64,000 nt of DNA, taken from positions 15,096,645-15,160,644 of the forward strand of contig OZ316893.1 of NCBI GenBank assembly GCA_973895155.1. The letters run 5' to 3'. Source of the stretch: Marsupella aquatica (Eukaryota > Plantae > Marchantiophyta). The position numbers were made by a program, and so were the translations under genes. Positions within the stretch are counted from its first letter, which is position 1. Each line of letters begins with the position of its first letter. This document shows, piece after piece, positions 9,151-55,803 of this stretch. The notes under the pieces were generated by a model, which had not been told where the DNA came from, did no database searches, and saw only the letters and a list, made by a program, of their open reading frames with translations.

Positions 9151-9243
9151 CACGCGAACGACAACAGCAACACCAATTCGCTTTGCTTTCTTTCGCGATT
9201 CGTTTTGCTTTCTTTCACGGAGCAAGAATTTGTGAGACATAAA

Positions 9244-10620: not shown

Positions 10621-10781
10621 GTGTATACAACTTATAAAGGAATTTTCAAAATTCAAATGTGCCAAAGCTTGCTGGTTGCGCTCATGATTGTCTCGTGCCG
10701 GTTTTCCCAACAATGAGAAGGCAACAATGCAAAACACACAATTACATCTAAGGGCTCAAAAGAATGCCACAGACTTGTTCA

Positions 10782-12069: not shown

Positions 12070-12620
12070 GAACGCATAATCATGTAGCATTGGTACAGTA
12101 GCGCTGGTAGCTTGACCTGCAGTTGTTGAGCTGATGGATTAGCGTTACCTCTCGTTGTTCTCACTCTTTGGGCGGGCTCGTTTGATTTGGTCAATTCGTG
12201 CGCACCTGCAGTGGGATGCATAATGCATAATTATGTGCAGTAGCGTTATCTCTCGTTGTTGTGTTGATGCAGTAGCGTTACCTCTCGTTGTGCTCACTCT
12301 CTGGAAGCGCTCGTTGGATTAGTCAATTTGTTCGTTCCTAGAGTAGGATGCATAATTATGTGCGGTAGCATTGGTGCAGTAGCGTTCTCTCTCGCTGTTG
12401 TGTTGATGTAGTAGCGTTACTTCTCGCTGTGCTCACTCTTTGGAAGCGCTCGTTGGATTAGTCAATTTGTTCGCACCTACAGTGGGACGCATAGTTATGT
12501 GCAGTAGCATTGGTGCAGTAGCGGTGTCTCTCGCTGAGTATGCAGTAGCGTTACCTGTCGTTGTGCTCACTATTTGGGAGCCCTCGTTTCATTCGTCAAT
12601 TCGTTCGCAACTGCAGGTTG
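12070..12620. repeat. Degenerate tandem repeat upstream of SPO11-2
   Basis: Recurrent gcagtagcgttacctctcg(t/c)tg and cgctcgttggattagtcaatttgttcg blocks in 3-4 units of roughly 120-150 bp. Confidence 0.8.
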
Positions 12621-25260: not shown

Positions 25261-26645
25261 GGGGATGCAAGGTGAGTCTCTGAAAATGCTGTAGTGGACT
25301 TGAATGTCCTCACCTTTGTTGTAATAGTATGTTCAAAAAGTGGGACCAAGCTAGTGATAAGAGAATGGAAAAGCTACGCCAAAAATTGATTGATGGGCAA
25401 CCACTGGGCATCACATGTGAGAAGCCTAACCTGAACATACCACCAGCGGGTCACTTTGACCCTTGGTCAGAATTTTCTAAGCACTTTAAGCAGTTTGGTC
25501 CGAATTCAAATTGTTCCACTATGGCTAATGGAAGTGCATCCAAGATACTCAAATGCTGTTAGAATCAAGCTCAAGGTTCATTCCTTGTTAATGGATGCTA
25601 CAGTGTTTTGTCAGATTGAGCATTAACTACCTGTAAACGCTCCTGCTTTGTATAAAAGATAGTACTGGACCAGAATCTTTTCTGAAAAATAAAAGGCAGC
25701 CAATCCTTCTTGTATTGGTTAAAAATCATGTGAGCAACATTGAGCATAGCTATTGGCCTTTAGATAGCTGGGCCACCTTCTTTGTAGAGCAGGACAATGA
25801 TCCCATTTTGTCAAGTCAAATGGCATACGACTTCCCACATTCCTGGTCAAAAAGGCTTTGTGCAACATAGGGCCCGCTATGTCCCAATTATTGACAAATC
25901 ATTCTCGTGGGACCATGTCTTAGCCTTGTACGCCCCTGGTAATCACACATCAAAATGTGGTTGCATTCATTGATTAAAAAAATAATAATAATATTATCAC
26001 TGTATGTATGCAGGGTGTCGTACATAATATTTGTCATATTTTGATGTACAGTTACCTAGACCCCTTGTACTCTACCTCAATGTAATAGCATTAATATTGT
26101 CTACCCTACCCTACCTCTATTTATTATTATTACACAAATGTCAAAACGCCACTTAATGAAGAACACTACGAGCATTTTAAAATTTCAACCAGACGAGCAT
26201 TAAAATTTCTTAGGAACAGAGAGGTCACAGTATAATTCAAGTTTTAGTAAAATTAAGGGCGTAGGCCTGAAACTTTACTCCATGAGATCAAGGTAAACTA
26301 GAAACCATCACCACACCAGGTCAGAACGACAGTACACGGAGGTAGGATATTAGGACTGAACATAATGTAGTGCTCATGTGACTAATAATTTGATATGAAA
26401 GTTACACTCTGGAGCCTATTGTCGATAGTGAAGCCTGGACAATGTGACTCTTGGGTGCTAGCAACTTTAGGGGTTCAGCAACAAGTGATGAGCCTGAGCA
26501 AAGCTTCGATGGTCAGGCTAGTAATCAGTGTAGTGGCATAAGTTGAATTCAGCATTGCTTGACAAACCAGAGGTCACCATATTATTAGGGTGTTCAACCC
26601 AGTTGTTTCAGTGGAGGTTTTATGAGACCAGAATGCTGCAAGCTG

Positions 26646-27003
26646 TGTCATGCCAAGGGACAGTGCCTCTTATGCACATCGGCATGTCCCTCGCCTGCCC
26701 GCTAGGTATGTAGTTAGGGTTAGTGTACTACCTGAGTTAGCGACATGTTCTTGTAGCAAGTCTGGGCCGTTCTTGAAGCAAATGTGCTTGTTAGTGTGAC
26801 GCCAGGACTTTGCTTGCTTAGGGCATGTCTTTCTTTGTGGGTTTTCAGTTCTTCTTGAATCGCTGTCGACAGAGCTCAAACAGTGCTCGTCGGTTCCGTA
26901 CACGGGATTCACACAGTGATTCGTTAGATGCTCCCGGCCGATCTTGGCATCCCGCCGGTTTTTGATTCGATTTCAGTACACTTGTTTCTATCATGCCTTT
27001 TAT
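26646..27003 (+). repeat. Split direct repeat A1 (358 bp)
   Basis: Matches 42494-42851 with 8 substitutions and no indels by manual comparison. Confidence 0.95.
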
Positions 27004-28687
27004 TCAAGAAGAACTGCTGAGTTGCCGGCGAGGGGAAGAAGGTAGGAGACATTCTTGTCTCAGCTGCTTATGTCGGTCCAGACAATTCCCGTCGAAGTCG
27101 GTGCAATTTCTTTGAGCAACAATGGAGGGACGGGTTGAAATTATGAGTTTAATGTCGCGTTATGTGTAAGTATACACATAAAGCTTCTATTGGAACCCAA
27201 ATTTTCCTTCCCAGGTGTGTCCGCGATCCCTTCCGTTGAATGTTGCCTCCGTCGATTGCCGGCCGTAGCATGACCTACTTCCGACTGCCATTCGACTGCC
27301 GCGAAGTGGAGGCGACTTGCTGCTGATTGACATACGCGAGGCCGTTTTTTGGTGTTTCCCGGCCAATTTCTCTCCTTTTTCCATTCTGTTCAGGCAGCTC
27401 CCGTCGCGAGCTGTTTCCTGGCCGCGACCCCTTTTCTTTACTTGGCAGCTGCCGTCGCGAGCTGCCTCCTAGTCCTGCCGTTGCCCTACCTGCAGCCTGA
27501 GTATACACATGTGGGGCTCATCAATGCCCAAAGCCGCGCATAGGGCTGTGCGCCCTCCCTTCGCTCCTCCTTACTCACATAGGGGGGGTCCCGTTTTTCT
27601 TTCGCCTCCCCCTCGCCTCGTTTTAGCCTCGACCTTCCGTTGCCAGCATTAAGAGAGGGGGGGAGTACAGACTCCCTTCTCTTGGGAGTAGATTTTCGCA
27701 CAAGGAGGGAGAGGGCACGAGGCCCTATGAAGCATTAAAAGCAGGGGGAGGGGAAGTTGAGCACAACCTATCAAGCCAGGGGGAAGCGAGTGCCAATAGA
27801 GGGCTCGAGGCCCTAGGCAACATTAAAGCAAGGGGGAGGGGGAGTCGAAGCAGCAGCGCAAGGAGTGGGCACGAGGCCCTAAGCAACATTAAGGAGGGGT
27901 GGGGGAGTTAGTCGCTCCCTTCTCTTCGGGAGCACATCAGGAGTTAGGAGGGGGCGCGAAGCCCTATGCAGGGCCCAAGCCATTGATTGAATCACAGTGG
28001 TTTGTGCATAGGCTGTCTTAATTGGGGCCCCATTTCTTTTCTTTCGCTGCGCTCTCGCCTCGCTTCCTCGCTTCGCCGCGCCTTTTCCTCCTTAATTAAG
28101 TGCTCCGCAGCCTGTACGTACATAGGGTCTCGTCACTTTTCCAGTGTGCTTGATACTTCCCGGGTCCACATCGGGGCCCGATGTATACACTTAACCGAGC
28201 CCCATGTTTGTACATTTGCAAGGGCCCCATGTATACACTTAAGGGGGGCCCAGGTTTACGTTTTTAAGGGCCCATTTTTTTGGATTTCTTTGTTGCCGCA
28301 ACGTGTCATCTGCATAAAGCTGAGGGCCCGGCATATTCATCAGACAGTCAATCCAGCAAGCATAACACCAGTACAATTGGAGTTTTTAAGGGTCTTTTCT
28401 TTGCTGACGGCTTTTCTATGTCTTTTCTTTGCTACGAGCCAGGAGGTAGCAGCACATCGCCACTGACACCCACGTACCATTTACGGAGTGATCCACGACC
28501 ATTGGTGCCAATTTCATTGGAGTCTCGGCAATTTTGATGACGTCCACAGATTGCAGCAGCACCCACACCACGCAATCCTTCTGCTCAATTTGGCGGTCGC
28601 TTCACTACTAACCCGAAGCCTGCTATCACTTCCTTGCCATTTACCCCTTCTGCATCAGTGGTTGTTCCAGCTTCACCGACATACAGC

Positions 28688-31500
28688 ATGGATGCTAGCC
28701 ACTCATCTGGCCGCATTGAGCGCTTCAGCGGGCGGCCAGGCACTATTTCTTTACGTGAGTTCAAATCCACTTTCTACACTGTCATTTATGAATTGGAGTT
28801 GAAGTACGGCAGCAATTTCACAAATGCTTTTGCATTTAAGCAGCTAGCCAGGTATGTGCACCACGAGGCTTTGGATGTGTATGAGCAGCACTCTCAACGG
28901 CTGCTTGCTATCACACAATTGCCTAACCCTGCCTATGCCAGTGCAATTGCGGCTGCCTCACAATTGGCATTACAGAATGCCATTGCAGCCCATGCTGCTG
29001 CTCCTGCCACTTCCCCTCCTACTCCAGTTCCTACCACTGCGCCAGTTACTCCCACTATCTTGGCACAGGCTACATCAGGCATTTCTCCCACCATTGATTC
29101 CTCTGCCTTTGCTGATCCAGTGGCTGAGTTTTTCCAGGTTCTTGAATTAGAATTCCCTATCAAGAGTGCTGACAAAATCATGCAGTTGGCCACCTTTATG
29201 AGGCAGCGCAATGAAACATTGAAGATGATGTATTGCCGGCTTCTCAAGCTGAAGGAGGACACCCAGAGCATCACTAACCTGGAAGCTGCTCATCGCTATC
29301 TTCGCGCATTGGAGGGCACTCCAACTCTCCATTCGCAAGTGTTGCAGCAAGTATTCTCAGAGTTTGGAGACAACTACACCCTGCTCAATGTCTATGACAC
29401 TGCTGAGAAACTTGAGTTGGCCCATGCACATTATGAGGCCAGTATTGCACGTCCACCGCGATCCAGGTACCAGGCTGCTGCCCCTACACTGGCCACCCCT
29501 TCCCGTGTGCCACAGTATGGTTCCAAGACCAAGCCAGCCCATGCTGCTTTCATGCTGCCATCTTGCAACTACTGTGGTAACCCCAATCACAAGGCTAATG
29601 ACTGTGATATTGTTGCTGAGGACCTGTCTTGTGATTTTTGCGGAAAAGTGGGTCACTTGGAGGCAGTTTTGCCAAATTCCCAGAGAGGAAGCAGCTACGA
29701 CAGCAGGCCCCTCCTCCTGCTCCTGCTTCCACTCCCCCACCAGCTAGGAGGGCTCCTACTGCATCAACTGCTCCTCCTTCCAGTGGCAAAGCATCCAGTG
29801 CCAACAAACCGCCCAAGCAACAACAGAAGCAACCAGTTCAGAAGGAAGCTCACAACGCACAGGCAACTCAACTCCAGTCTCTGACTCATGAGGTTGAGTC
29901 CCTACGTGCCCAACTTGCGAACATCAAAGGCAAGTCAACTGCCTTTGCTGGTCCTTCTCAACCGGCTGGTCACGTGCAACCCATCCCTGGCCCAGGCACC
30001 ACTGACAGTTCAGCACCTCTACCCCGCTCTTTCTATGGCTTGCCATTTGATGCTCATATGGGTGAGTGTGTGCTGTCCTCTGCTCCACAGCCTGGCCTTA
30101 CAGCAGAATTTTCAGATTCATTCTGCCCTTCCTATTTTGCTTACCAGCAGGCTAGTGCTGCTTCCTATACTACTCCCACCCACCGCATTGTACAGGCTGA
30201 TGGTCTTGCTGTTGGTCCTCTGACTAGAGCCAGGGGAGCTCGGGCTGTCATGCCCCAATCCTTTCAGCCACTCACACTTGCTGAAGAGCGCACCTTGTTT
30301 GCGAGGGGGGAGGGAGCTGCAGCTACATCCATTCCACCACCAGGTGCTGCTGACATTTCACAGGGAGTTGTTTCTCCTGAGCTGCTTGAGCATTTCACCT
30401 CCGGTATGGCACAAAGGATTCTTACAACTCCACTTTTCAGTTGCCATGATTTACAACTGGATGCTAGAGCTGTCATCAGAACGCTAGAGGGCTCACTGCA
30501 TTCTTCATCAGCCCTTGTGACACCGGTTTTGGAGGTCCAATCTCATGTACATACTAGATCTTCTTCTTCTCCATTACATGCTTCCACTGGTTTGGCTATC
30601 CCAGTACCAATTTCCAGTGGTAGAGATGACAGTATTGCTGCAGATTGTGTGACCAGAGCTACACTGGATTCTGGTCATGCTGCTCCATCTTTCCTGACTA
30701 TGCTATTGAGTGGAAAGATCGTGGATACTAACTCCCTTCACAAGGTACCTCATCATTTGCCAAAAGTGGTGCCTAGCGACAGGACTTCAGTTTCCACCAC
30801 CATTGCCATTGTTGACAACAGGAATTCAGCGGTCAAGTTGGAGGGTCACACTCCTCAGGTGGTCATGCTGGACATAGGCGCTCAACCAGTGATATTGGGC
30901 ATTCAGTTTGCCAAGAAGATAGGACTGCTGACTGATCATTTACAACAATCCAGGTGGCACATTCGGACTGCTAGTGGCACTGTGGAGGATGTGCTGGGTG
31001 AGAGTTCTACTTTACTCACTCTCACTTTTAATGGAGGTACAGATCAGGAATTGCATTTCCCAGTCAGATGTTTGGTTACCAATGCCACTACGTATGATGT
31101 GCTCATTGGCCAGGAGGCTTTATTCCCACCAGGTTTTACCATTGACAATTGGCATGAGCATGCATACTACAAAGTTGATTGGCATACGAATGGCTCACAC
31201 TTGGGCTACATTCCACTTGATTTGCATGGTGCCCATACACCTATGGCTCACCACTGTGTGTTGCAAGCAGTGCACACAGCTACCTATGTCAACCACCCAT
31301 TGCAGGATTGGATTGAGGAGGATGATGATGAGGTGGCTACTGCACATGCTGCTGCACATATAGCAGCACTTTCCAGCAACGTGGATCATCAACCAGAGGT
31401 GGTACAACGGCTCCAAGCAGCCCATGGACCTTTGGTGGCTGCATTGCACAAATTTGAGGATCTTGGGCAGCACAATGGCCAACCAATAGCCCCAATCTTG
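28688..31500 (+). pseudogene. Gag (two zinc knuckles) and aspartic protease of the methyltransferase element
   Basis: IERFSG...LREFK Gag-like start. Knuckles CNYCGNPNHKANDC and CDFCGKVGHLEAV, then a frameshift at about 29668. Protease VMLDIGAQPVILG (D at 30871) and YDVLIGQE. Confidence 0.85.
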
Positions 31501-31529
31501 AGCGCACCAATTACATGGACTCCTACTCC

Positions 31530-32500
31530 GGATGGCCTTACATTGCTTGAGCTTTTTGGTGGCATTTCTACAGGCCTGGAAGCTCTCCTATAGTCTGGCA
31601 TGGTGGTGAAGCAGTACATCTATGTGGATATTGATCCAGGTGCAAGGCAAGTGGCTGAATCCCGTCTGCTGGAATTTTCAGAGCGATTTCGTCAGCAGTT
31701 TCCACACAGTGCATAGAAGTCTGCATTTTCTTTCTTTCCTCCAGATATCCAGCTTGTCCAGTACCGGCACTTAACCCTTCTTGGCTCCCTTGATTTGATC
31801 ATAGCTGGTTGGGAATGCCAAGGGTTTTCAGTTGCTGGTCACGGTGCTGGACTGCATGATTCTCGTTCTGGCCTTTTCACAGCATTGGTTCAGATTCTCA
31901 CCTGGGCTCAATCCCTTTATCCTACTGTTGGTTATATCATTGAGAATACTCCATCTCAGTTTGACCAGCGTCCACAGGTCAAAGAGGATTTCAGTGTGGT
32001 CCAGCACTACTTGGGACCACCCCTTCTCATTGATGCAGTGCACTGTGGTTCTTATGCACATCGTCTTCGTAACTTTTGGACTAACCTTGCACCACCTTCC
32101 TTGTTGGAGTTAGCTCTTCACCACACATCCAGGGACACTAACCTCACAGTGGACCAGATTTTGGATCCTGACAGTTCTTGCCAACCGGTTACACGGCAAG
32201 AGCCAGCACCTTGGTATCCAGCTAATACTATTGGACAGCCCCGTGCTGCTTGGCCTACATTTGTGTCCTTTCCAGGTGCACATGCTTTTCAGGGTGATGG
32301 TCCTGGCCTAGTTTATCGACATTCTACCGGTACATGGGATGAACCTAGTCCTGAGGAGAGAGAACGGGCTATGGGCTTCCAACCCGGTACTACAGGTCAC
32401 ACCAAAATCACCAGGCTGGCCAGGAATGCTTTACTTGGCAGGGTAATGGATCTTAATGCTCTCACTTGGCTTCTGGTCACTTGCATCCTTTTTCAGATGT
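31530..32500 (+). pseudogene. DNMT3-like C5 cytosine DNA methyltransferase domain inside pol
   Basis: Motif I LELFGGI, motif II YVDID, motif IV DLIIAGWECQGFS, SGLF, motif VI YIIENT, motif VIII AHRLRNFWTNL, motif IX ERERAMGF, motif X RNALLGR. All in one frame continuous with the protease, with in-frame TAG stops at 31591 and 31714. Confidence 0.92.
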
Positions 32501-34104
32501 ACATTCATCCAGCATCAGGAGTTCCAGCCCTACCACTCCATGGTGCTGCTACATGGCATCCAGACTGTTGGGTATTTACTCTTACGTCTAGGTTAGGTAT
32601 GACGTGGTTGGTACAACTACGTGGGTTGGTACAACTACGTGGTTAGGTACAACTACGTGATTAGGTACAACTATGTGGTTAGGTACAACTAAGTTGCACA
32701 CTATATCATAAGAGGCATGTGTGCTTGGAGAGGTAGAACCAAGGCTCATTGTTATGGAGCCACTCGAGAGATAGGGAGAGCTTACACTGTGGAGACTCGG
32801 TATAGCCGACGGGCTTAGAGTTCAGTAAAGCTCTCTTGTGTGTTCCCGTGGACGTAGCCTCAAGGAGGTGAACCACGTATCTCTTGTGTCGACTATTGTG
32901 CGTTGGATGGTTCATGGGCTTGCCGTTGCGATCGTCGTCTATGCTAAACAATTGGTATCAGAGCATGCTTGGGAGGTGACGTGTGTTCGTGACGGGATTT
33001 CATGACGGTTTTTCCAGCGTTGAGTGTTGGTGGATTTTCCAGAGTTCCATCGCATGGAACTTGGAGTTTATGGGCTCAACGGATAGATCAGGGCAAGAGC
33101 TTTCTAACGGTGTGAAGAAATCGTTGAACGGAGCTCGTGGTGCAGAGAGATCTAAGTTTTCGTCGTTCTGGATTTTGTGAAGAAAGTTGGCAATCGACTC
33201 GGAGGGAGAAGCGTCAAGTGTTTTGACTCAACGGAGAGATTGAGGCAAGACGATTGTTTTTGAGTCCGGGATTGGCTCTTTGATGCAAAGAGGAAGGCTA
33301 AGCAAAATCAATTACCTTGTTGGACTTGGTGACGGCACCAAGTGCAATTGATCAACATTCGTTGTTGACAAGGTACCATTTTTTTCTCTTTGAAAAACTG
33401 ATTCGAAATTGGCTATGGCAATTGAGAGAAATCTGTCATCTTTACCAATTTTTTTCTCCCTCGTTCTTTCCTCGTTTTGGGTGCTTCTTATATCGATCTT
33501 CATCGCCTCGGAGTCTAGTTTCCAAATCTGAAATCGGATCTTGATTTCGTCAAAACCCGAGTGAGATATCTTGCGTTTGGTGTCGAGGGGTACATTCTGC
33601 CGTGTGTATTTTCTGCGCGCGCGACCAGATTTCGACGACGAAGGGTGGTAGGGGGTTTTGGGGGTTCGAGGACACATGTCAGCCCCTCGATTGTTCTTCC
33701 AAAATTCCCACAGGGCCTGTACAAGGGTCATAGAATATTCCAAAAAACTAGAGAGCTATTTTTTGACCGTCCGACAAAGATTTCATCCGCCGAACGGTAA
33801 CTTTTTTGGTTATTTTTCGGCGAGGTCGTAGCCATTGAAGTTGGCAATGCAGCGCACCAATCACATCGCAATTCCGACAACGGGTTGTACTTGGTATTTC
33901 GGTTATTCCCTGAGGTGGTCAAAACGGGGGAGTTTCCCAAGGTTTTACCCACCTCGACCGAAATTTGAATAACTTTTCCGTCAAATTTCAATTTTGATTT
34001 TGGTTTTCAGTATTGGACTCCTAGCTTTGTGGGCTACGCGGCGGTGTTGAGTTTCGAGTTTTTTGAGAAGTTGTGAAAAACAACATTTTTTGTGACTTTC
34101 TCAT

Positions 34105-35139
34105 ATGAGTGATTCGGAGGAGTTTTTCGAAGACGTGGAACTTGAAGCACGAGGATCACCGCGGAGGTTTCAGGGGCAGAGAGAGGAGCAGGAGGAAGAG
34201 CACGTGACACCGATACCATCACTGGTGCGGCGTGTGGTGGAGGAAGCAGTACTACTACCGGAGCTCACGGTAAAGAAGAAGATGGGGACTTTCAAGCTTG
34301 GGGGACCCAAGTATGAAGTGACAAAGTATGATGGGCGCTCTGACTACTTGCTATGGGAGAAGCAGGTGAAGGGAGTGCTTTATGCGTCAGGGATGGGCCA
34401 ACTGCTGAGCCCTCGTGAAGACGATGTTGATGAGAAACAATGGGACCGCATGCAGGAGCAGGGAGTGTGGTGTGTTACACTCTATCTCATGCCTCCCATC
34501 ATCAAGCAGTTAGGTGCACATAAGGATTGCATGTCCTTGTTTGCGGAATTGCAGAGCAAGTATCACCGCAAGGAGTTGTCGAACCGGCTCTACACTTCCT
34601 ACAAACTGATGAGTTTCAGGATGAAGGAATCTGGTACGAAGTTGCAAGACCATGTGGATGCTTTCAACGACATGGTCGTTGACTTGGAAAACCTTGGGGA
34701 GACTTTGAATGATGAGACGAAGGCTCTGCAGCTTCTTAGTTCATTGCCTCCATCTTACCAGTCCCTATCACGAGTGTTGTTGCATCGTGATAGGGATACC
34801 ATTTCATACAATGACGTCGTAAGTTCTCTGCTTAGTGATGATCTTCAGCAGAAGATGCACATCACGTCACAGCCTTCATCATCTGGTGCTGCCCTCAATG
34901 TTAATCGTGGGAGGAGTATGCAGCGACCAACTGGGGACCGTAGAACCCAGTTTAGATCTAAATCCAGATCTAAGTCCAAGGGTAAATCCCCTCAGAGGAG
35001 GCAGGTGACATGTTGGAAGTGCAACCAAGTTGGACACTTCAAGCGAGACTGTAAGGGAAAGACAGCGGAAACTTCATCGGCAAATGTGGCTAGGGCTGAT
35101 GGAGAAGCTGATTTACTCAATGATGAGTATGTTTTATGA
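34105..35139 (+). CDS. Copia Gag
   Basis: KYDGRSDYLLW, LLSSLPPSY and zinc knuckle CWKCNQVGHFKRDC. Confidence 0.92.
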   Translation: MSDSEEFFEDVELEARGSPRRFQGQREEQEEEHVTPIPSLVRRVVEEAVLLPELTVKKKMGTFKLGGPKYEVTKYDGRSDYLLWEKQVKGVLYASGMGQLLSPREDDVDEKQWDRMQEQGVWCVTLYLMPPIIKQLGAHKDCMSLFAELQSKYHRKELSNRLYTSYKLMSFRMKESGTKLQDHVDAFNDMVVDLENLGETLNDETKALQLLSSLPPSYQSLSRVLLHRDRDTISYNDVVSSLLSDDLQQKMHITSQPSSSGAALNVNRGRSMQRPTGDRRTQFRSKSRSKSKGKSPQRRQVTCWKCNQVGHFKRDCKGKTAETSSANVARADGEADLLNDEYVL

Positions 35140-38100
35140 AGCCGGGGGTATGCCCTGTGCACGTCATCTAGGAGAGCAGATGATGTGTGGATTCTTGATT
35201 GTGCTTGCTCTTTTCATATTTGTTACATTCGTGAGTTTTTCAGTTCTTACTCTGTTTCAAACGGTTCAGTTCTGATGGGAAATGATCACTCCTGTCAAAT
35301 TGAGGGAATTGGGTCTGTGAAGATTCAAATGTTTGATGGCGCTGTGCGCACAGTGTCCGGAGTCAGGTATGTACCTGGCATGCGTAAAAATCTGATTTCA
35401 CTCGGTGTGTTGGATTCAAATGGTCATCAATGGAGCGTTATTGATGGTGAACTTCAAGTCAGGTCGGGAGAGACAGTGATTTTGAAGGGGAGTAGACAAA
35501 AGAATTTGTATGTGTTACAGGGCAATACTGTATGTGGAGAGGCCAATGTAACCAAGTCTCACGAGGAGATGACTCAACTGTGGCATTCACGGCTAGGCCA
35601 CATGAGTGAGAAGGGTTTGGCTATCTTACGGAAGAATGGACTCATTTCTGATTTGCAATCTTGTAAATTCGAGTTTTGTGAGCATTGCATTCTTGGAAAG
35701 CAGCATCGTCGTGCTTTTGGTGTTGGAACTCATCGTTCCAAAGCGGTTCTTGAGTACATACATAGTGACGTGTGGGGTCCATCCCCGACTCCCTCACACT
35801 CTGGAAAGTTGTACTATGTATCATTTATTGATGATTACTCAAGATTTGTGTGGATTTATTTCATGACGCATAAGTCTGATGTCTTGTCCATTTTTAAGAA
35901 GTGGAAGGCCCAGGTGGAGAATCAGACTGGAAACATGATCAAGTGTTTGGATACAAGGGTGAAGAGTCTGAGGTCAGACAATGGCGGGGAGTACACTTCA
36001 ATGGAATTTGAAGAGTACTGTTCAGAACAGGGGATAACTCGCCATCTCACCACAGTTTATACTCCGCAGCAGAATGGTGTCGCTGAGAGGCTCAATCGGA
36101 CATTGTTGGAGCGGTCACGGAGTATGTTGAGCCAATCAGGTTTACCACAAGAATTTTGGGCAGAAGCTGTCAATACCGCAGCTTATTTGGTAAATCTTTC
36201 TCCTTCTAGTGCTATCAATTTCAAAACGCCGTTTGAGATGCGCTATAAGCGGCAAGCAGACTATCATGGCTTGGTAATTTTTGGAAGTGATGCATATGCT
36301 CTCACACCAAAGCAGAATAGGACCAAGTTGGATCCTACCTCCAGGAAATGTGTTTTTCTTGGGTACCAGAGTGGTGTGAAAGCCTATAGGCTATGGGATC
36401 CTATTGCCTGTAAGCACGTTGTCAGTAGGGATGTTTCCTTCAATGAATCCAGATTATTGAAGGAGGGGGAGAATACTCAGGTCTCCCGTACTGACAAAGG
36501 AAAATCTCATATCCCGGATCTCGTTGAGGGGGAGATTGGTTATGAGGTGCATGACCGGAGAGAAGGAGTTGCTCCAATTATGGAGCTGGTTCCTGTGCCA
36601 GAGGAACCAGAGGAGTTTGTTGATGCTGGTGAGCAACAAGTGGATGCTGTTGAGCTTCAAATTGTACCAGCACACGCAGATCAACCGGAGTCATCGGCTA
36701 GAAGAACATCTGATCGCACTGTACGCGCTCCATCAAGGTATGGACAGTGGGTTGATTCATCTCAACTGCAAGAGGATGATTTTACAGCTGATGATGAGGG
36801 TGATGCGTTAATTTTGGAAGAAGGAGAACCTTCTTCATTTCATGAGGCAAGTGCTTCAAAAGAGAAGCAGAAGTGGACTGCAGCAATGCAAACGGAGATG
36901 CAGTCACTAAAGGACAACAAAACTTGGGAGCTTGTTAAGCTGCCTAAGGGTCAGCAAGTGGTGGACAGCAAGTGGATTTACAAGCTGAAGGATAATTCCA
37001 TAGGAGGTGGATCGAAGGTCTACAAGGCTAGATTGGTAGCAAAGGGATTCACACAAGAGAAAGGTGTGGATTACAATGAGGTCTTCTCACCAGTTGCTAA
37101 GTACTCTACAATACGACTATTGTGTGTACTTGTTGTAATGTTTGGTCTGCTCCTAGATCAGATGGATGTTGTCACAGCTTTCCTCTATGGCACATTGGAA
37201 GAGGTGATCTTCATGAGACAACCGCTAGGTTTTGTGAAGAGAGGACAGGAGGAATTGGTTTGCAGATTGCTGAAATCCTTGTATGGGTTGAAGCAGTCAC
37301 CAAGACAGTGGAACAAGCGGTTTGACGATTGGATTCGGTCACAAGGTTTTCATAGAAGTGTATTTGACCCTTGTGTGTATTTGAAACCGGTGAAGAATGT
37401 TGTCTTTGGGTTCATTGTTTTAGTACTTTATGTGGATGACATGCTAATTGCAGCCAAGGATAGGTCTGAGATTGTTAAGCTCAAGGCACTGCTTAGTGCA
37501 GAGTTTAAGATGAAGGACTTAGGGCCAGCTAAGAGGATTTTGGGTATGGAGATCACTAGGGACTTGGAGGCTGGCAAGCTATGGTTGACGCAGAGCAGTT
37601 ATGCAAGGAAGGTAATTGCAAGGTTCAACATGGAGAATAGCAAGCCAGTAAGTACCCCGTTGGCTCCACACTTCAAGTTATCATCAGCGTTCTGTCCTAC
37701 GGATGACACAGAGAAGGGGTTGATGTCAAAGGTTCCATATGACAAGGCAGTGGGGAGTCTCATGTATTTGATGACTTGCACTAGACCTGATCTTGCCATG
37801 GCTATGGGCAAGGTGAGCAGGTACATGTCGAATTCAGGGAAGGTACACTGGGAAGCAGTGAAGTGGATTATCAGGTACTTGAAGGGTACCGTGGATCATG
37901 GTCTTTTATTTGATGCGAATGCAAAGAATGCTAGATCATTGATTGGCTATGTAGATTCTGACTATGGACAAGATTTGGACCAAAGGAGATCAACAACAGG
38001 ATACGTGTTCACACTTGGCGGTGGATGCATAAGTTGGAGGTCTACTTTGCAGAAGTGTATTGCTCAGTCTACTACAGAAGCGGAGTATGTTGCAGCTGCG

Positions 38101-38412
38101 GAAGCAGCAAAGGAAGCGATTTGGTTGGATAGACTTATCACCGAAATGGGATTGCCATAGGGGAATGTGAAGCTCCATTGTGATAGTCAAAGTGCGCTCC
38201 ACCTTGCTGTGAACCAGGTGATGGACAGCAGAGTGAAGCACATTGACGTCAGGTACCATTTTATCAGGCAGACTGTGTCTGATAATTTGTTTGAGCTAGT
38301 CAAGATTGATGGTAAACTCAACCCGGCTGACGCATTTACCAAAGTGATTCCTTTGGAGAGTTTCTCTAGACACCGTGACGTATTGCAGGTTTTGCAATTG
38401 CATCACAAGTAG
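35140..38412 (+). pseudogene. Copia Pol (protease, GAG-pre-integrase, integrase, RT, RNase H), same frame as Gag; one in-frame TAG at 38158
   Basis: WILDCACSFH, WHSRLGH, IHSDVWGP, LRSDNGGEY, QNGVAER, QMDVVTAFL, LYGLKQSPRQW, LYVDDML, YVDSDY, KHIDVRYHF. Confidence 0.93.
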
Positions 38413-39029
38413 AGTTTTCTTAAACATTCATTGTAATTACTGATATATGCTCTTCCTCATTCCTATGTATTAGGCTACGGCTTAGTTCTGGTTTGCTCTA
38501 GTTAGAGAGGGAAACCGGTTTGGTTTCTGTCCAGAACTTCCCGCTGAGGGATCATATACATTGGCAGTATTACTCTCCCCTAGACCAGAGTCAAGGGGAA
38601 GATTGTTGGGTATTTACTCTTACGTCTAGGTTAGGTATGACGTGGTTGGTACAACAACGTGGGTTGGTACAACTACGTGGTTAGATACAACTACGTGATT
38701 AGGTACAACTATGTGGTTAGGTACAACTACGTGATTAGGTACAACTATGTGGTTAGGTACAACTAAGTTGCACACTATATCATAAGAGGCATGTGTGCTT
38801 GGAGAGGTAGAACCAAGGCTCATTGTTATGGAGCCACTCGAGAGATAGGGAGAGCTTACACTGTGGAGACTCGGTATAGCCGACGGGCTTAGAGTTCAGT
38901 AAAGCTCTCTTGTGTGTTCCCGTGGACGTAGCCTCAAGGAGGTGAACCACGTATCTCTTGTGTCGACTATTGTGCGTTGGATGGTTCATGGGCTTGCCGT
39001 TGCGATCGTCGTCTATGCTCAACACAGAC

Positions 39030-42000
39030 CAGGTGCACTTACCTCTGTCCAACACTCACCACTTCAGTCCAAGTGTTGGGGGGGAGGAGGTCCCTTGTAA
39101 TGTGGCTGACATTATTTCTGAGTTTCATGGTGTGGATCAGACCAGAGCAACAGATACAGCAGGCCTTGGAGAGGCCTCATCACCTTATCAACAGCATGCT
39201 AGCAGCTTGGACAGTGGAGAGGCTGGCACTTCTGGTTCTTCAAGCACGAGTACATCAGGTCCTTTTCCTAGTGTTGCCAACTACACATTCATCATGGGCA
39301 ACCACCTGAGTAAAAGACAGAAGGACCAGCTGCTGAATTTGCTCCTCAAGCATGAGAACGTGTTTGCTTTCTCTATGAAGGACTTGGGTAAGTGCAAGAC
39401 TATGCAGTTCTCCATTGAGTTGGCTGATGAAACACCTATCTTCAGGCGGAGACACCGTTTGAGTAAGCATGAGTGGCAACTGGTGGATGAGAGATGCCAA
39501 GAGCTCTATGAAGTTGGTCTTATTCAGCCCTCTACATCAGATTTTGCAGCAGCTACAGTGATGCCAGCAAAGAAGGATTCCAGTGGATTGTGGACAGAGA
39601 AGCGCATGTGTGGGGACTACAGGCCATTGAACCTGGTCACACCCCAGGACAGGTACCCCATGCCACGGCCAGAGGAGCTATTTGACAGCATTGGAGACTC
39701 AGACATCTTCACTCTTGTGGATCTAAGGCAAGGCTTTAACCAGATTTTGCTGCTTGCAAAGGACCACAAGAAAACAGCTTTCCATGGTAGTAACCAACTA
39801 TGGGAGTGGTTGGTGATGCCATTTGGCTTGAAGAATGCGCCCATATTCTTTCAAAGAGTCATGGACCAGGTTCTTCAAGGTGCTGAGTTTCTGAAATGCT
39901 ACATTGATGATGTGTTGGTCCACAGCAAAAGATTTGACCAACATCTACTTGACCTTGAGGAGCTATTCATGAGGCTTAAGAAGGTGAACCTAAAGATACA
40001 CCCCAAGAAGTGTGAATTTGCTGTCAGATCAGTAGTATACCTTGGGCACCGCATTCTTCCAAATGGAACCATGGCTCACTGGGCCAAGGTGGTATCCATC
40101 TTGGAAATGCCCACTCCGACTGATGTTCACACTCTTAGGAGCTTTATTGGGTTGTGCAATTACTACCGGATCTACATCAAAGATTTTAGTACCATTGCAC
40201 ATCCATTGTACTCTTTGTTGAAAAAGAATGTGACTTGGACATGGAGTACAGATGCTGAGGCAGCATTTGCCACTTTGAAGGAGAAGCTCTCAGAATACCC
40301 GGTGCTGAGAAGACCTGATTTCAGCAAGGTCTTTGTGCTACACACAGATTGGAGTGCCCTTGGGATTGGTGCCATTCTGGGCCAGCATGATGAAGAAGGT
40401 AAAGAGTACGTCATTGCCTATGCATCCAGGAGCAACAATCAGGCAGAGAGTCATTATTCTTCTTATGAGGGTGAATGCCTTGCTGTTGTGTGGGCTGTCA
40501 TACATTACAGGCCCTACCTCTATGGGACCAGGTTTACTCTCTACACCGACCACCAGCCCTTGAAGTGGTTGATGACTAACGACAAGCTTACTGGCAAGCT
40601 TGCTCGTTGGGCACTCATCCTCCAGGAGTATGACTTTGAGGTAATTCATAGGCCTGGTTTGACACATCAGAATGCTGACACTATGTCCCGCAACCCTTTG
40701 ATTACCTCTGATGATTCCTCAGATGCACGGCAAGATTTTGACCAGGTTTCCATCCTGCCTACATTTCATGCATCGACTATCTTGCTTTGCTGCCATGCTA
40801 TGTTGTTGACCAACCTGTGGTGGACATATGGGAGGACAGCAACACTCTGAGATTTCTGCAGCATGGGGAGTACCCCACACATGTTACTACTGCCCAGAGA
40901 GACCGAATTCAGCAAAGGTCCAAGCGCTACTTGTGGAAGGGAGATCATCTCGTGCGCTGCTTGCCAGACAGGGAAGTGGTGGTTCCACCCATTCATGAGA
41001 GGGTTGGCCTTATTCGTAAGGTACATTCTAAGCTTGGTCATTTTGGCGTTAAGAGGACTTACAGCCTCTTGGTCCCTCATTATCATTGGAGAGGCATGCA
41101 TGGCCAGGTTCGAGATGTTATTGCCCGGTGTGAGCAGTGTGATAGGGTAAGGACTTCTTTCACGTCTCGGCAACCCACACTTCACCCACTGCCTATTCAG
41201 GGCATGTTTTATCGTTGGTCATGTGATTTGGCTGGAGAATTGCCCCTCACATCTCGGGGTAATCTCTACATCATGATCATGATAGAGCATTTCTCCAAGT
41301 GGATAGAACTTGTGGCATTGCCGGATAAAACCTCCCGTAGCACCAGCCAGGCATTCCTACAACAAGTTCTCAGCCGCTTTGGAGCTTGTGCAGAATGTCT
41401 CACTGACCAGGGCTCAGAGTTTAGAGGAGAGTTCCAGGAGCTGCTTGATCAGGCCCTCATTGATCATCGCCGGACATCACGAGATCACCCACAGGCAGAT
41501 GGCTTGGCAGAGCGCATGGTTCAGACATGCAAGAAGGGCCTCCGGAAGATCTGCCTCACCAAAAACAAGGAGGATTGGGACCTGGCCTTACCCTACATTG
41601 CCATGGGGTATAGGATGTCCAGACATGCATCACTGTCTAACTTTTCTCCCTACTTCTTGTTGTTTGGTCGTCACCCAGTTCCACCTTCTGCTATTGTTGC
41701 TCACATGCTTCAGGTGGTGGACTTGGATTCAGCTGTGACTTGGTCTGATGTGATCTCTGAGAGGGCTGCCCTATTCAGGAGGGTTATGCCCATGGCCATG
41801 GAGAATTTGGCCATTGCACAGCACAGGGACACATTGCGTTATGCACACACACGAGGGGGCACTTTTCAGCCCAAGGTCAGGAAGTTTGATGTGGGAGATT
41901 TTGTGTACTTACAGCGGCAAGCTAACGACACCCTGGACACCTGTACCAGTCATACTATTCTCAGGGTTAAAGCTATTCGACCGTCTGGAGTGCTAGAGTT

Positions 42001-42276
42001 ACAAGGGGCAGATGGGCGCACAATTGCTGACAATGCCAAGAATTGCGCCCCTTGTCATCTGCCTAACCTAGATCCCACCATTGTGACTTCTACTTGGATT
42101 CCACCTGTGGACTACCCTTGCAAGGTGTGTTTGCGATGCGAATTGATGATGCTGACCAGATGCTGCTGTGTGACAATTGCAATGGAGGGTACCATCTTTT
42201 CTGCCTTCGGCCTGAACTTACCCAGGTGCCAGAAGGGTTATGGTTTTGCCCTTCTTGTGCTCCACGTGCTACCTGA
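39030..42276 (+). pseudogene. RT, RNase H, DDE integrase and PHD finger of the methyltransferase element
   Basis: RT: RMCGDYRPLN, MPFGLKNAP, YIDD. RNase H: LHTDWS, YEGECLA, TDHQPL, NADTMSR. Frameshift at about 40775. Integrase: H..LGHFG...CEQC, WSCDL, TDQGSEF, GLAER. PHD: CKVC...CDNC...HLFC...WFCPSC. Confidence 0.95.
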
Positions 42277-42315
42277 ATTTTCTTCAGCCCTCCTTTTGGC
42301 TGTGGTCTGGGGGGG

Positions 42316-42491
42316 ATACAGAGGTTTACACCTCCACTACGTACATACCACTTCATTTGCTTTTTCTTGGCACTTGTGAATGTGATTGGACTTTTTCTAT
42401 GCATGTTGGTTGCTAGCAGCTTGCACATATGCCTTGCCGGTGACTTGTATGTTTTCGATACACTATGGCTATGATACTATATGTCACGACA
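42316..42491 (+). repeat. Split direct repeat B1 (176 bp), preceded by a G7 tract (42309-42315)
   Basis: Matches 42852-43027 with 2 substitutions. Confidence 0.95.
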
Positions 42492-42493
42492 GC

Positions 42494-42851
42494 TGTCATG
42501 CCGAGGGACAGTGCCTCTTATGCACATCGGCATGTCCCTCGCCTGCCCGCTAGGTATGTAGTTAGGGCTAGTGTACTACCTGAGTTAGCGACATGTTCTT
42601 GTAGCAAGTCTGGGCCGTTCTTGAAGCAAATGTGCTTGTTAGTGTGACGCCAGGACTTTGCTTGCTTAGGGCATGTCTTTCTTTGTGGGTTTTTAGTTCT
42701 TCTTGAATCGCTGTCGACAGAGCTCAGACAGTGCTCGTCGGTTCTGTACACGGGATTCACATAGTGATTCGTTAGATGCTCCCGGCCGATCTTGGCATCC
42801 CGCCGGTTTTTGATTCGATTTCAGTACATTTGTTTCTATCACGCCTTTTAT
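42494..42851 (+). repeat. Split direct repeat A2
   Basis: Copy of 26646-27003, separated from B1 by the dinucleotide GC. Confidence 0.95.
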
Positions 42852-43027
42852 ATACAGAGGTTTACACCTCCACTACGTACATACCACTTCATTTGCTTTT
42901 TCTTGGCACTTGTGAATGTGATTGGACTTTTTCTATGCATGTTGGTTGCTAGCAACTTGCACATATGCCTTGCCGGTGACTTGTATGTTTTCGATACACT
43001 ATGGCTACGATACTATATGTCACGACA
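42852..43027 (+). repeat. Split direct repeat B2 (3' end of the element)
   Basis: Copy of 42316-42491, ends CACGACA and is followed by GCTG. Confidence 0.95.
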
Positions 43028-43376
43028 GCTGGGTTGTAGGCCAGACATCTGTTGCTTGAATGCTGTATTCAACATCCAACAAGTACTCAAGGTGCAATAA
43101 ATTGAGAAGTTTGTGTGCTTGTGTTGGATGCTATGGACCCTCGCGTGGCCATCAATGAGAGGATAACGGTGCCTCATCATTCCCCCTCCCTTCTGTGCCT
43201 CGTCATCAATTCCCTCCCTCCCTCGCGAATGCTCCCCCCATGCCTCAGTCAGTCCATCCCCTCCCCTCTGTGCCTCATCATTCCCTCCCTCCCTCGTGAA
43301 TCCCCTCGATCTTAGCAATTCTCTCCCTCCCTTCATTTCGCCAATGCTCCCTCCGATATGGGCCAGCTCTCCTTGC

Positions 43377-46584: not shown

Positions 46585-48070
46585 TGAAATGGGTGACCTG
46601 GGACACTCTTTCCAAAGGGCTCAATAAGAGGGGCGACCCTTTTTAAGGGTCCTTTTTCTCTGGGAGCATTCCATTTTTTTTTAATTTATTTTCTTGGGGT
46701 GAAATGGAGGTATATGCTTGATGGGACCCCTGCCAAAAGAAATTTAGTTGATAGGCCCTTATGAAACTTTTATTACAAACTAGGCCCCTTCTGGCACTTT
46801 TGTGTCAGATATTCTTGTAAAGTTCCTATAAAGGAGTTTAGCTTGATATTGTCACCAATAAGAGCTACTATAAAGTTTAGAGTCAAACCATGCTTAATGA
46901 CAAACTACATCGTTGGGCGAACCTCGGAGTAATGGCGACCGTCGCTTGCATTGTGACTTCCTAAGTGAAGACAATATGGGTCATGTCTTTAGGTTTAAAT
47001 TTCATCTTTAGGTTATTTCATGGAACCTATCCACAGGGTTTGCATGATGTTTCGACGTTTTTCTTTGTTCTTTTGTCTAAGTATGGAATGAATCTTCTAT
47101 TTTTGGCCATATATTCTATTCCCGTCCCTATTGCAACCTTTAAATTGTCTTCTCACATCTAGACCCCAAATTTGTCTAAGTATGGAAGGAACCAAGGGTC
47201 TTGTACTCTTTGGTGTTTTCACTTGTTGCAACCCCGGTTGCAACTCTAAAAAATTGTCTAAGTGTGAAACAAAGACACCATGGACTCAATCATAACGGGA
47301 AAATTTTGCTAGCCTGCACGAAAGCTTGCAATAACTAGACTAAATGTTTAGACTAAATATTGTACAAACCCACTATGATCCTATAGCGATGGATCCCTTA
47401 AAACTCCATAATTATGTGAAGACATAATTCATTATGTCTTCAAACATAGAAGTACTCTATAATCATGTGACATACGCGCAGTGGACTATGATGCAAATAA
47501 TGTGCGGTGAATTGTGATATGAAATGTACGATTTACCATGCATTTAGGCACCACATAAGAACCATGTGTACGGAACCTATCTAGGGGGCCTTGTTGGTAA
47601 CAACATTTTTGTGAGGGGTCTAGTTTGTCACAAAAGTTTAGTAGGGGCCTTTCATGTAAATTTGTTTTGGCAAGGGTCCCATCAAACATATACCTCGGGT
47701 GCACTGGGTCACCTGGAAGAGGGACGACTCTTTTAAAGGGGCTAAATAAGAGGGGAGGAATAAAAAAGGAGGGGAGTATTATTGTTAAGAATTAAGAAAT
47801 TTTATTCTTTACCTGGGACACCCTTTCCAAGGGGCTCAATAAGAGGGGTGACTCTTTTTAAGGGGCCTTTTTGTGTGGGAGCATTCCATTAATTTTTATT
47901 TCTTTTCTTTGGGTGAAATGGGTCACTTGGAAGAGGGACGACTCTTTTAAAGGGGCTAAATAAGAGGGGAGGGTTAAAAAAGGAGGGGAGTAATATTGTT
48001 AAGAAATTAAGAAATTTTATTCTTCACCCGGAAGAGTGACTACTATTTTGAAGGGGCTAAATAAGAGCAT
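46585..48070. repeat. Dispersed and tandem subrepeats, probably an old non-autonomous element
   Basis: ggggct(c/a)aataagagggg and actcttttaaagggg blocks at about 46600, 47710, 47820, 47930 and 48040. Confidence 0.6.
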
Positions 48071-52865: not shown

Positions 52866-55803
52866 ATGCCACCAAACTTCGATTTTGTAGATTGGTGGAC
52901 GAAAGAGTCGCACAGGGCACAAGGGGTTCCACCGGTGGTTATTAGCAAGATGGAGAATCCTAATTGGTCGAAGCTTGAACTTGAAAGTCCCAAGACCCCG
53001 GGGTTTGCAGGTGAGAAAGATAAGGGGAAGAATGCCAAGCAGCTGACATGGGTTTTACTCCTCAAGGCACACCGGGCAGCAGGTTGCGTTGCGTGGATGG
53101 CTCTGGGCCTGTGGACGTTGCTCCAGGCCATTAAAAAGCGCCTAATTTTGAGACAAGGAGTTCCGCCACCATCGGACAAACCGGGCAAAGGGAAGCTGTA
53201 CAAGTTCATCACAGCTTTCTTGACTTTCGCTGTGTCGATGTTGATCTTCGAGATTGTGGCGCATCTGATGGGCTGGCATTTCAGCCGCCCGCACCTTCAC
53301 CTTCCGACATCCTTCTCCTTACAGGGCCTTCCCCACTCCATATATCAAACTTGGATTTTCATCAGATTGAAGTACATTGCACCACCTCTCCAACTCCTAG
53401 CAGATGGATGCATTGTATTGTTTCTGATCCAGTCCGCCGACCGTGTGATCTTGTGCTTGGGTTGCCTTTACATCAAAATGAAGAATGTCAGACCCGTCCC
53501 CAAAGTAGCATCTTTGGAGTCGGATGATCCTGAGCAACCCGACGCTGGCTATCCTATGGTCCTCATTCAGATTCCCATGTGCAACGAAAGGGAGGTACGG
53601 TACATTTCTGATGTACCTTTGGTTCGCTGCTTGGTGGAGGGAATGTGGGTTGCAGAATTAGGGCAGTCGTTTCCTGTGCCCATTACAACAAAGATGTTAG
53701 CGATGGGATTTTGGGATGCTTTAATTTACAATTGTTGCCCTGTTTTCCTTCGTCACTCCAGACGGTTGTCTTAAAACTGAATTCATTTCCGCAGGTGTAC
53801 GAGCAATCGATATCGGCGGTCTGCCAGATTGACTGGCCACGAGATCGCATGTTGATCCAAGTCTTGGACGACTCTGATGACCAGGACACTCGGATGCTCA
53901 TCAAGGCTGAAGTGCAGAAATGGAATATGAAGGGAATCAATATCTTGTACAGGCACCGAGTTGTCCGCACTGGTTACAAGGCCGGTAACCTCAAATCAGC
54001 AATGAACTGCGAGTATGTGCAGGACTACGAATTTGTAACAATATTTGATGCGGACTTTCAGCCGAAATCTGATTTCTTGAAGAGGACGATTCCTCATTTC
54101 AAGGTGCTTACTCACGCTCCTGTCCCATGCGTGGTTGAGTTTCAAGATTCTTAAAGAACGTGCTGAAATCATGGTTGCTCCAATCCTGCTGGGGAGTGCC
54201 GTTGTGAGTCTTTGGTTGATCAGGTTCTGACCCCTCCTGAAGCGCCATCTTACAGGATCAGCCCGAACTCGCCTTGGTGCAAGCTAGATGGACGTTCGTG
54301 AATAGGGACGAGAACCTGCTGACTCGGTTACAGAATATCAATTTGTGCTTCCATTTTGAAGTGGAGCAGCAGGTGAATGGGATTTTCCTCAACTTCTTCG
54401 GGTTCAATGGGACCGCAGGTGTCTGGAGGATCAAGGCGTTGGAGGAATCCGGAGGTTGGCTGGAGAGGACCACCGTGGAGGACATGGACATCGCTGTCAG
54501 AGCCCATCTCCAAGGATGGAAGTTCATCTTCCTCAACGATGTTGAGGTAAGACCTCGTTATTGAATATTAGCTCCGTGAAATATCTTCAAGAGGGATCCA
54601 GGGATTTCAGCTAGTGGTGGAATGGGTCACGAAGACGATATCAGAGCAGGAAATGTGAGTGCTGGGTTTATACGGAGATGTATTCGCGTCCTGCTTGGTC
54701 TATCTCAGGCTGCATGGGCAAGTAGTGCCTATGTTTCAGTAGGCAGGGACTGGATTGTGATACTCGGATTGGAAAAACGGTTATTCGCCTTAAGTTCTTA
54801 TCAGCTAGCGGTAGTGGCTTCAGCTCATGGTCTTGTCAGCACAATTTTCACAGATGTGAGCCGCTTGTTTTTATCGCTGGCCCTGACATTTCCGTTTGCA
54901 GTGTCTCTGTGAATTGCCCGAATCGTACGAAGCCTACAGAAAGCAACAACACCGGTGGCATTCTGGTCCCATGCAGTTGTTCCGGCTGTGCCTTCCAGAT
55001 ATTATTAAGTGCAAGGTTAGTTTTTCCTGGCAGATCTGAGCATTCTCTTGCGCAGAATTGGATTTTAGAACATCGGTGATCACTGAGAAGAAGATTCCTT
55101 TCTAGCTGTCCTGTGAGTTTGATGCTAACTCTATTTCATTTGTTCTGATGTGCAGCTAGCTTGGTTCAAGAAGGCGAATCTCATTTTTCTCTTCTTTCTA
55201 CTAAGGAAGCTGATATTACCGTTCTACTCCTTCAGCTTGTTCTGCGTGATCCTTCCATTGACTATGTTCGTCCCAGAAGCACAATTGCCAACTTGGGTGG
55301 TGTGCTACATACCAGCCCTCATGTCTTTCATGAACGTGTTCCCAGCGCCCAAGTCTTTCCCCTTCCTCGTCCCGTACCTGCTTTTTGAGAACACCATGTC
55401 AGTGACAAAGTTCAATGCCATGATTTCTGGACTGTTCCAGTTGAGCAGTTCCTTCGAGTGGGTTGTAACGAAGAAGTCAGGAAGAGCATCAGAGACGGAT
55501 CTTGCTGGACTACTGGAGCAGGAGGAGACTGCACTTCCGACCATTCGACATAACCGTGGCACCTCTGAATCTGGTCTAGACGTCTTAGCGAAAATAAAGG
55601 AACAGCAACCGCAACAACCAGCTGCCCCCAAGAAAAAGACGAACAGGTTGTACAGAAAGGAATTAGCTCTAGCATTCCTGCTGTTGACAGCGGCAGCGAG
55701 GAGTTTACTATCAGCCCAAGGAGTCCATTTCTACTTTCTCCTGTTCCAAGGGATTTCCTTCCTAGTTGTGGGACTCGATCTCATCGGCGAGCAAGTGAGC
55801 TGA
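52866..55803 (+). CDS. CSLC: Cellulose synthase-like C (GT2, xyloglucan backbone glucan synthase), 5 exons, 696 aa
   Basis: Exons 52866-53594, 53795-54103, 54256-54546, 54902-55015 and 55156-55803 splice in frame. Motifs: [41 protein letters not shown], and C-terminal [10 protein letters not shown]. Confidence 0.97.

Follow-up and report, generated by a model that had tools for sequence, protein, structure and literature searches.

A Ty3/Gypsy retrotransposon of the liverwort Marsupella aquatica with a DNMT3-related domain in its polyprotein, and its relatives among bryophytes and green algae

A contig of the liverwort Marsupella aquatica (OZ316893.1, assembly GCA_973895155.1) contains a retrotransposon in which a domain resembling a cytosine methyltransferase (DNMT) lies between the protease (PR) and the reverse transcriptase (RT), which raises the questions of whether this domain is a regular part of the element and of what use such an enzyme would be to it. 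The stretch of DNA analyzed, hereafter referred to as the window, comprised 64,000 nucleotides (positions 15,096,645 to 15,160,644 of the forward strand). In the initial annotation of the window, the domain was considered to be DNMT3-like, to have belonged to the Pol polyprotein before the insertion of a Copia element, and to extend methyltransferase-bearing retrotransposons to a land plant, with the suggestion that the element methylates its own cDNA or its insertion site; the split layout of the repeats and the extension of the family to chlorophytes were not part of that annotation. Since 2018, the role of transposon-encoded cytosine methylases has been a question, one reason being that the hosts described so far are difficult experimental organisms.

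Structure of the element and of its methyltransferase domain

Positions 26646–43027 of the window are a Ty3/Gypsy element encoding Gag-PR-DNMT-RT-RH-INT-PHD. A Pfam search over its ORFs revealed a Gag zinc knuckle, a protease, a DNMT, an RT, an RNase H (RH), an H2C2 plus rve integrase (INT) and a PHD finger, and the Ty3/Gypsy order PR-RT-RH-INT with a DDE integrase is present. Ordinary LTRs are absent; the repeats have the DIRS-like layout A-coding-B-A-B, and the ends of the element are TGTCATG...CACGACA, with GCTG flanking both. The features are as follows (window coordinates, strand, description):

26642..26645, +, left target-site duplication of 4 bp, GCTG (related insertions have 4-bp duplications that vary in sequence)
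26646..27003, +, repeat A1, starting with TGTCATG, left end of the element (8 mismatches per 358 bp against A2)
26846..26860, +, 15-nt stretch in A, predicted RNA 5' end and self-primer (perfect complement of 27002–27016; compensatory changes in relatives)
27002..27016, +, primer-binding-site-like stretch adjoining A1, not a TGG-type tRNA site (complementary to 26846–26860)
28688..29668, +, Gag carrying a zinc knuckle, with a frameshift near 29665 (PF00098; 68–70% identity to P0004 and P0086)
30832..31122, +, aspartic protease with substituted active-site triad (PF13975/PF13650, under the curated cut-offs)
31531..32490, +, DNMT3-like C5 cytosine methyltransferase domain, motifs I–X in order, stops at 31591 and 31714
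32566..39024, +, nested Copia, LTRs 32566–32950 and 38604–39024, CAGAC duplication at 32561–32565 and 39025–39029
39030..40745, +, linker, reverse transcriptase (YIDD at 39900) and RNase H (PF00078, PF17917; in the DNMT frame without the Copia)
40742..42100, +, DDE integrase and H2C2 zinc finger, behind a frameshift near 40776 (PF00665, PF17921)
42100..42273, +, C-terminal PHD finger, frameshifted near 42132 (PF00628, E = 3.4e-12)
42309..42315, +, G7 run (polypurine tract) adjoining B1 (position common to all 17 right ends and to L105–L107)
42316..42491, +, repeat B1, terminating in CACGACA (2 mismatches per 176 bp against B2)
42487..42498, no strand, palindromic junction of B1, GC and A2 with the core GACAGCTGTC, equivalent to the right end of the element, GC and its left end
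42494..42851, +, repeat A2
42852..43027, +, repeat B2, forming the right end of the element; GCTG comes next at 43028–43031

The low divergence of A1 from A2 (8/358) and of B1 from B2 (2/176) indicates that the window insertion is young. The copy is dead: the DNMT contains two stops, the reading frame is shifted at three points, the protease triad is altered and the Copia is inserted. Membership in the tyrosine-recombinase groups DIRS, Ngaro and PAT was rejected, given the rve and H2C2 domains and the variable 4-bp duplications, and no match to the phage integrase family was found by the Pfam search in the ORFs of the element.

Translation of 28000–34000 bore out the ordered motifs claimed in the initial annotation: motifs I (31543–31563, LLELFGG), II (31621–31635, YVDID), IV (31792–31830, DLIIAGWECQGFS), VI (31936–31950, IIENT), VIII (32056–32085, AHRLRNFWTN), IX (32362–32379, ERAMGF) and X (32422–32442, RNALLGR) follow one another in the protease frame (usual C5-MTase motif numbering). 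The PF00145 HMM matched the window domain, read with X at the two stops, with E = 6.5e-7 and 29.5 bits against a cut-off of 22. The best PDB match by sequence was DNMT3A (E = 6.4e-8), followed at a distance by HhaI (0.007) and DRM (0.3), and AHRLRNFW, ERAMGF and RNALLGR align to the same DNMT3A stretches to which they had been likened. The AlphaFold model of the open domain of the related locus L003, which is 73% identical to that of the window, had a pLDDT of 94.9, and its top Foldseek match was DNMT3A (TM 0.75/0.86, rmsd 2.6). In VIA, the same model matched DNMT3B with Z 29.3 (rmsd 2.6, 274 aligned), and the Z values of other methylases were 26.1 for M.MpeI, 23.2 for DNMT2, 20.2 for DNMT1, 18.7 for MET1 and 18.6 for ZMET2. 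With DNMT3A/B first both by sequence and by modeled fold, the domain is, as far as such comparisons indicate, DNMT3-related, with its motifs unrearranged. The identification as DRM was rejected, since the motif order of DRM is permuted and motifs I–X of the window are canonical. According to the available part of PMC6453930, the host DNMT3s of non-flowering streptophytes carry a C-terminal DUF3444, and the DNMT3a/b described there resemble the window domain in the DNMT3-type catalytic domain and canonical motif order; a host plant DNMT3 gene was nevertheless rejected, given that DUF3444 is absent and that the domain lies inside a retrotransposon polyprotein.

When the Copia is removed, WHPD and QVHLPL share one frame with the RT, as had been claimed. 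The view that the DNMT is part of Pol holds as well: the domain is intronless within the Pol frame, and relative P0002 reads TWHPDQVHLP without interruption. One contig of run X7 lacks the Copia, joining 32560 directly to 39025 and extending for about 400 letters in either direction. At the second stop (31714), nearly all contig depth, from few contig rows, shows another letter. The summed contig depth in run X1 was about 1e5 over the element against about 90 in the right flank, a value that is not a copy number.

The nested Copia is itself young, its LTRs showing 5 mismatches over 339 aligned bases and a difference of two 18-bp tandem units. Its gag and pol share one frame with a single TGA between them at 35137, a case of readthrough or of mutation. 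Contigs of runs X1 and X2 jump from about 33370 to several points at 33822–34172, mostly with GT..AG ends; these contigs, jumping at 33369–34172, are possibly spliced or internally deleted Copia derivatives.

Relatives, domain order and selection

A metagenome scan revealed 257 related stretches, of which the best 80 were fetched (59–74% identical); these loci are not independent, because several represent one insertion in different samples. Another domain of the element was found in the same order in 79 of these best 80 loci, and among the loci the frame was continuous from DNMT to RT in 22 of 25 and from PR to DNMT in 24 of 28. Relatives found by protein search came from Calypogeia fissa, Sphagnum magellanicum, Marchantia polymorpha (nine proteins, annotated members including Mp4g09160 and Mp6g11220), Closterium, Haematococcus and Monoraphidium. 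The C. fissa protein CAM6101866.1 was 79% identical over the DNMT and contained Gag-PR-DNMT-RT in one model. The Marchantia, Calypogeia and Sphagnum proteins are located on megabase contigs, which upholds the proposed occurrence of such elements in land plants. In total, 250 clusters (50% identity) scored E ≤ 1e-30, and a long DNMT match was present in 350 proteins, 299 of which had another element domain, with the remaining 51 being mostly short. PF00145 gene counts in such genomes may include transposon domains.

Two domain orders were distinguished: PR-DNMT-RT in streptophyte-named proteins and RT-RH-DNMT-INT in chlorophyte-named ones. Among the full polyproteins (137 and the window), the former was represented by 9 + 1 and the latter by 128. 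In trees, the window domain clusters with the Calypogeia and Sphagnum proteins. Comparison of the unrooted FastTree topologies for the DNMT and for RT-RH revealed that, of the 55 strong DNMT splits, 45 were found again in the RT-RH tree and 4 were contradicted by a strong split there; both trees separate the two architectures (support 0.98), unlike a rooted quick tree, in which the PR-DNMT-RT form is not one clade. These comparisons of sequences show co-inheritance of the DNMT with the RT across a clade of bryophytes, Closterium and chlorophytes. The identity between architectures over the whole domain was 35–42%, and that to DNMT3A/B was 21–26%; the higher identity between the two forms favors a single acquisition of the DNMT, which would then have been relocated within the polyprotein. 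With members in chlorophytes, a zygnematophyte and bryophytes, a curiosity of a single lineage becomes an old or widely transferred clade.

A viral origin was rejected: a single query found no relative in viral contigs, and an alignment query gave partial phage and bacterial methylase matches (24–49%), which a quick tree placed outside the group of 36 retrotransposon domains. Three contigs from bacterial genome bins (L105, L106 and L107) proved to be near-complete eukaryotic DNMT-Gypsy elements, all carrying the G-run and, either whole or as a first half, the junction palindrome. Their presence in these bins is most likely contamination, and the circular assembly of L105 may be a collapsed repeat.

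Selection was evaluated with a Nei–Gojobori script. Between the window DNMT and 56 single-frame loci, the median pN was 0.218, pS 0.737 and dN/dS 0.086 (50 defined); the corresponding dN/dS values were 0.117 for PR, 0.070 for RNase H and 0.068 for INT. The between-lineage values for the DNMT (0.06–0.10) are rough, because synonymous sites are near saturation; in the less saturated pair L001 and L003, dN was 0.105 and dS 1.06. A ratio of about 0.09 between lineages corresponds to purifying selection on the DNMT; dN/dS among copies is a check that the initial annotation had proposed. Among eight close copies, dN/dS was 0.38 for the DNMT and 0.32 for the RT, and, of the 56 full-length DNMT copies from the loci, a single one was stop-free; most genomic copies are therefore decaying. 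The density of stops was similar across domains (1.33 per 100 codons in the DNMT, 1.31 in PR and 1.41 in INT). In the 138 aligned polyprotein domains, the Cys of motif IV, the Glu of motif VI and the second Arg of motif VIII were kept without exception, and the SAM-binding glycine of motif I was present in 135. The residue before the motif IV Cys was Glu in the window and in 79/138 relatives, and the usual Pro in 45/138. From the invariant Cys, Glu and Arg, we infer catalytic activity of the family enzyme.

It is hardly credible, then, that the domain is a fragment of a host DNMT3 captured by the window copy and decaying neutrally. Its two stops would fit such an origin, but the second is replaced by another letter in nearly all depth, stops are as dense in PR and INT, and DUF3444 is lacking. 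A domain confined to one neutrally decaying copy is also at odds with the 257 related stretches, with its common position in 79/80 loci, with dN/dS of about 0.09 and with trees congruent with those of the RT; family spread, ordered co-occurrence, dN/dS and tree congruence refute the capture.

The element is of a known kind, as it possesses every feature of Gypsy-Dnmt3 elements that could be tested. According to the available part of PMC5890265, KnitGypsy-Dnmt3 of Klebsormidium nitens combines a Dnmt3 within Pol with repeats of the DIRS-like kind, its Ka/Ks is below 0.2, and the acquisition is assigned to the lineage of K. nitens. The window element shares with it the Gypsy domain set, an intronless unpermuted Dnmt3-related Pol domain, the A-coding-B-A-B layout and purifying selection; it differs in that its relatives span liverworts, Sphagnum, Closterium and chlorophytes, with two domain positions. 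This likeness is one of description, with no Klebsormidium-named protein among the protein-search matches. SymbioDIRS-Dnmt3 of Symbiodinium, from the same available text, is similar in having Dnmt3 in Pol, A-coding-B-A-B repeats and two domain orders, but it relies on a tyrosine recombinase, where the window element encodes a DDE integrase and is flanked by target duplications of 4 bp. The EpiLTRs and DAM-LTRs (bioRxiv 10.64898/2026.05.21.726589, part of the text) are likewise LTR elements with DNA methyltransferases, chlorophytes included; their DNMTs, however, group with DNMT4 and are accompanied by DAM and a chromodomain, and the streptophyte Gypsy-DNMT3 is treated there as a separate, earlier described acquisition. 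In the parts available, this preprint and PMC12344493 place such elements in "streptophytes", citing PMC5890265, and name no bryophyte or chlorophyte member; those of PMC9940879 and PMC2774666 describe PHD-bearing Gypsy elements and REM1 in Chlamydomonas with no mention of a methylase. Published members from Marchantia, Calypogeia, Sphagnum, Closterium or chlorophytes were not found, although supplementary figures, Repbase and theses may show some, and no mention of the six Marchantia gene ids of members was found in the literature searched. The present analysis adds a wider range, taking in bryophytes such as Marchantia as well as chlorophytes in which the domain sits elsewhere, and a concrete, testable model of replication.

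Repeats, priming and integration

The complete A-coding-B-A-B layout was found in six loci and the window, a further ten loci had B-A-B right ends, and eight had A-coding-B. The last arrangement was rejected as evidence for one-LTR circles: one such copy, L038, has the same flanks as L014, which is of the B-A-B form, and collapse or recombination is enough to explain this. Among 15 elements with both ends (L033 was omitted, its start not being located, and two pairs share a site), 11 had perfect 4-bp target duplications, 2 had one mismatch and 2 had none; the duplications indicate integrase-type insertion. At 17821–18299 of L050, a solo A-B remnant lies within a 4-bp duplication and corresponds to the solo LTR of ordinary elements.

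No tRNA-type primer site was found behind A1. Instead, a perfect complementary run of 13–16 nt occurs in the same register in 12 of 28 related left ends, and most of the others have the same pairing with one to three mismatches; shuffled sequences gave a mean of about 7 and maxima of 9–13 per 100. Between the window and L003, two paired positions of this duplex differ and both are compensated, and the distant L105 has a 13-nt self-complementary pair of unrelated sequence. When folded, the duplex had a pair probability of 0.87–0.99 in L003, L042, L055 and L105; that of the window forms with ≤10 downstream bases and is outcompeted with ≥25 (pair probability about 0). The Tf1/sushi elements are Ty3/Gypsy elements that are self-primed, and the likeness lies in a stretch of the 5' repeat that is complementary to the adjoining site, without a tRNA-type site. 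The LTRs of Tf1 are of the ordinary kind, ending in TG...CA, and Tf1 is not known to encode a methylase. The available text of PMC5890265 on KnitGypsy-Dnmt3 contains no mention of self-priming, a junction palindrome or target duplications, and neither a Tf1-like self-priming signal nor a B-A junction palindrome was found in the literature for such elements.

According to the proposed model, reverse transcription would be self-primed by the RNA's own 5' end, as predicted from this pairing, and the functional LTR would be B+A, with an ordinary LTR cycle given the G-run before B. The TG...CA ends would then lie inside the B+A LTR, at the palindrome core, and the DDE integrase would use the internal CA-GC-TG palindrome instead of the cDNA ends; a two-LTR circle cut at one palindrome would yield the A-coding-B-A-B layout. 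The junction palindrome is also present in L105, L106 and, as far as the contig end, L107. The alternative permutation A-B-A-coding-B was absent, with B upstream in 0 of 28 left ends; a random choice between the two junctions of the circle would also give this form, which counts against the model as stated. Tentatively, and with slightly less than even confidence, we propose that an old self-primed Gypsy clade spread throughout green plants integrates via the internal palindrome of a circle, whether or not the DNMT has a marking role in this. The self-priming signal and the junction palindrome provide a testable account of DIRS-like split repeats in an element with a DDE integrase. In 17 B1-A2 junctions, wherever the GC spacer could be read, its only variants were AC, GT and AT, the pattern that deamination of methylated CHG on one strand or the other would produce.

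Possible roles of the enzyme, and the remainder of the window

The window domain belongs to a dead copy; for working copies, we lean towards a particle-borne enzyme that would methylate new element DNA before or at integration. It would be packaged in the particle by sharing a frame with Gag and protease, and its substrate would be the element cDNA, the DNA nearest to a Pol domain. New copies would thus arrive pre-marked, and host maintenance methylases would treat them as old, tolerated repeats. Among PR-DNMT proteins, 37 of 54 have no RT behind the DNMT, most of them ending less than 150 residues further on. In L105, a single in-frame TAG (3489–3491) followed by CAA TCA, which we take to be a readthrough context, separates Gag-PR-DNMT from the RT and suggests programmed readthrough behind the methylase in a sister lineage. 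With a stop behind the DNMT, the enzyme would be made at Gag-level amounts. A test of CpG depletion as a possible mark of self-methylation gave 0.26 for the element, 0.50 for the Copia and 0.34 for the pooled family, with 0.19, 0.44 and 0.47 for three non-family controls. In the available part of PMC5890265, de Mendoza et al. propose self-methylation of cDNA for SymbioDIRS-Dnmt3, the domains of which methylate CG in yeast; KnitGypsy-Dnmt3 gave no methylation in yeast, a result considered inconclusive by the authors, with the DNMT3B control also being inactive.

Activity on host chromatin, at the integration site or on genomic copies in trans and maybe guided by the PHD finger, appears unlikely. 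A PHD finger does lie behind the integrase in the window and in most full-length relatives, and the chlorophyte-type DNMT directly precedes the integrase (128 of 137 full polyproteins); that of the window type, however, is parted from the integrase by RT and RNase H, and the protease would likely free it. A non-catalytic role (DNA binding or decoy of a host factor) or action on RNA or RNA:DNA hybrids is rather less probable. The Glu-Cys of motif IV and the negative yeast assay of the Klebsormidium domain (PMC5890265, in the part available) are in its favor, but Cys, Glu and Arg are invariant across domains only about 32–45% identical, the motif I glycine is kept in 135/138, and the fold is closer to DNMT3 (Z 29.3) than to DNMT2 (23.2).

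The methylase might also mark one of the two identical junction palindromes and so decide which is cut by the integrase, by restriction-modification logic within the same self-primed clade. The core and an adjacent CG are kept in the window, in close relatives and in three distant loci, across both architectures; only one of the two possible permutations is seen (0/28 left ends with B upstream); and, in the available text of PMC5890265, split repeats and Dnmt3 co-occur in SymbioDIRS-Dnmt3 and KnitGypsy-Dnmt3. The same text, however, reports DNMT-less DIRS elements in the same genomes, and recognition by the integrase already explains the conservation of the palindrome; we consider such marking improbable. 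For methylation of new element DNA, as for the other readings, the members in Marchantia polymorpha make the methylase question accessible in a plant that is amenable to genetics and for which methylation mutants exist.

Elsewhere in the window, an intron-containing glycosyltransferase-2 gene (PF00535, PF13632) lies at 52866–55803 (+); it presumably belongs to the CSLC type of the cellulose synthase-like genes and is in keeping with a streptophyte host. Additional repeat families, both dispersed and tandem, occur at 9243–11110, 60438–62120, 12107–12593 and 46587–48067 and are probably what is left of other elements.
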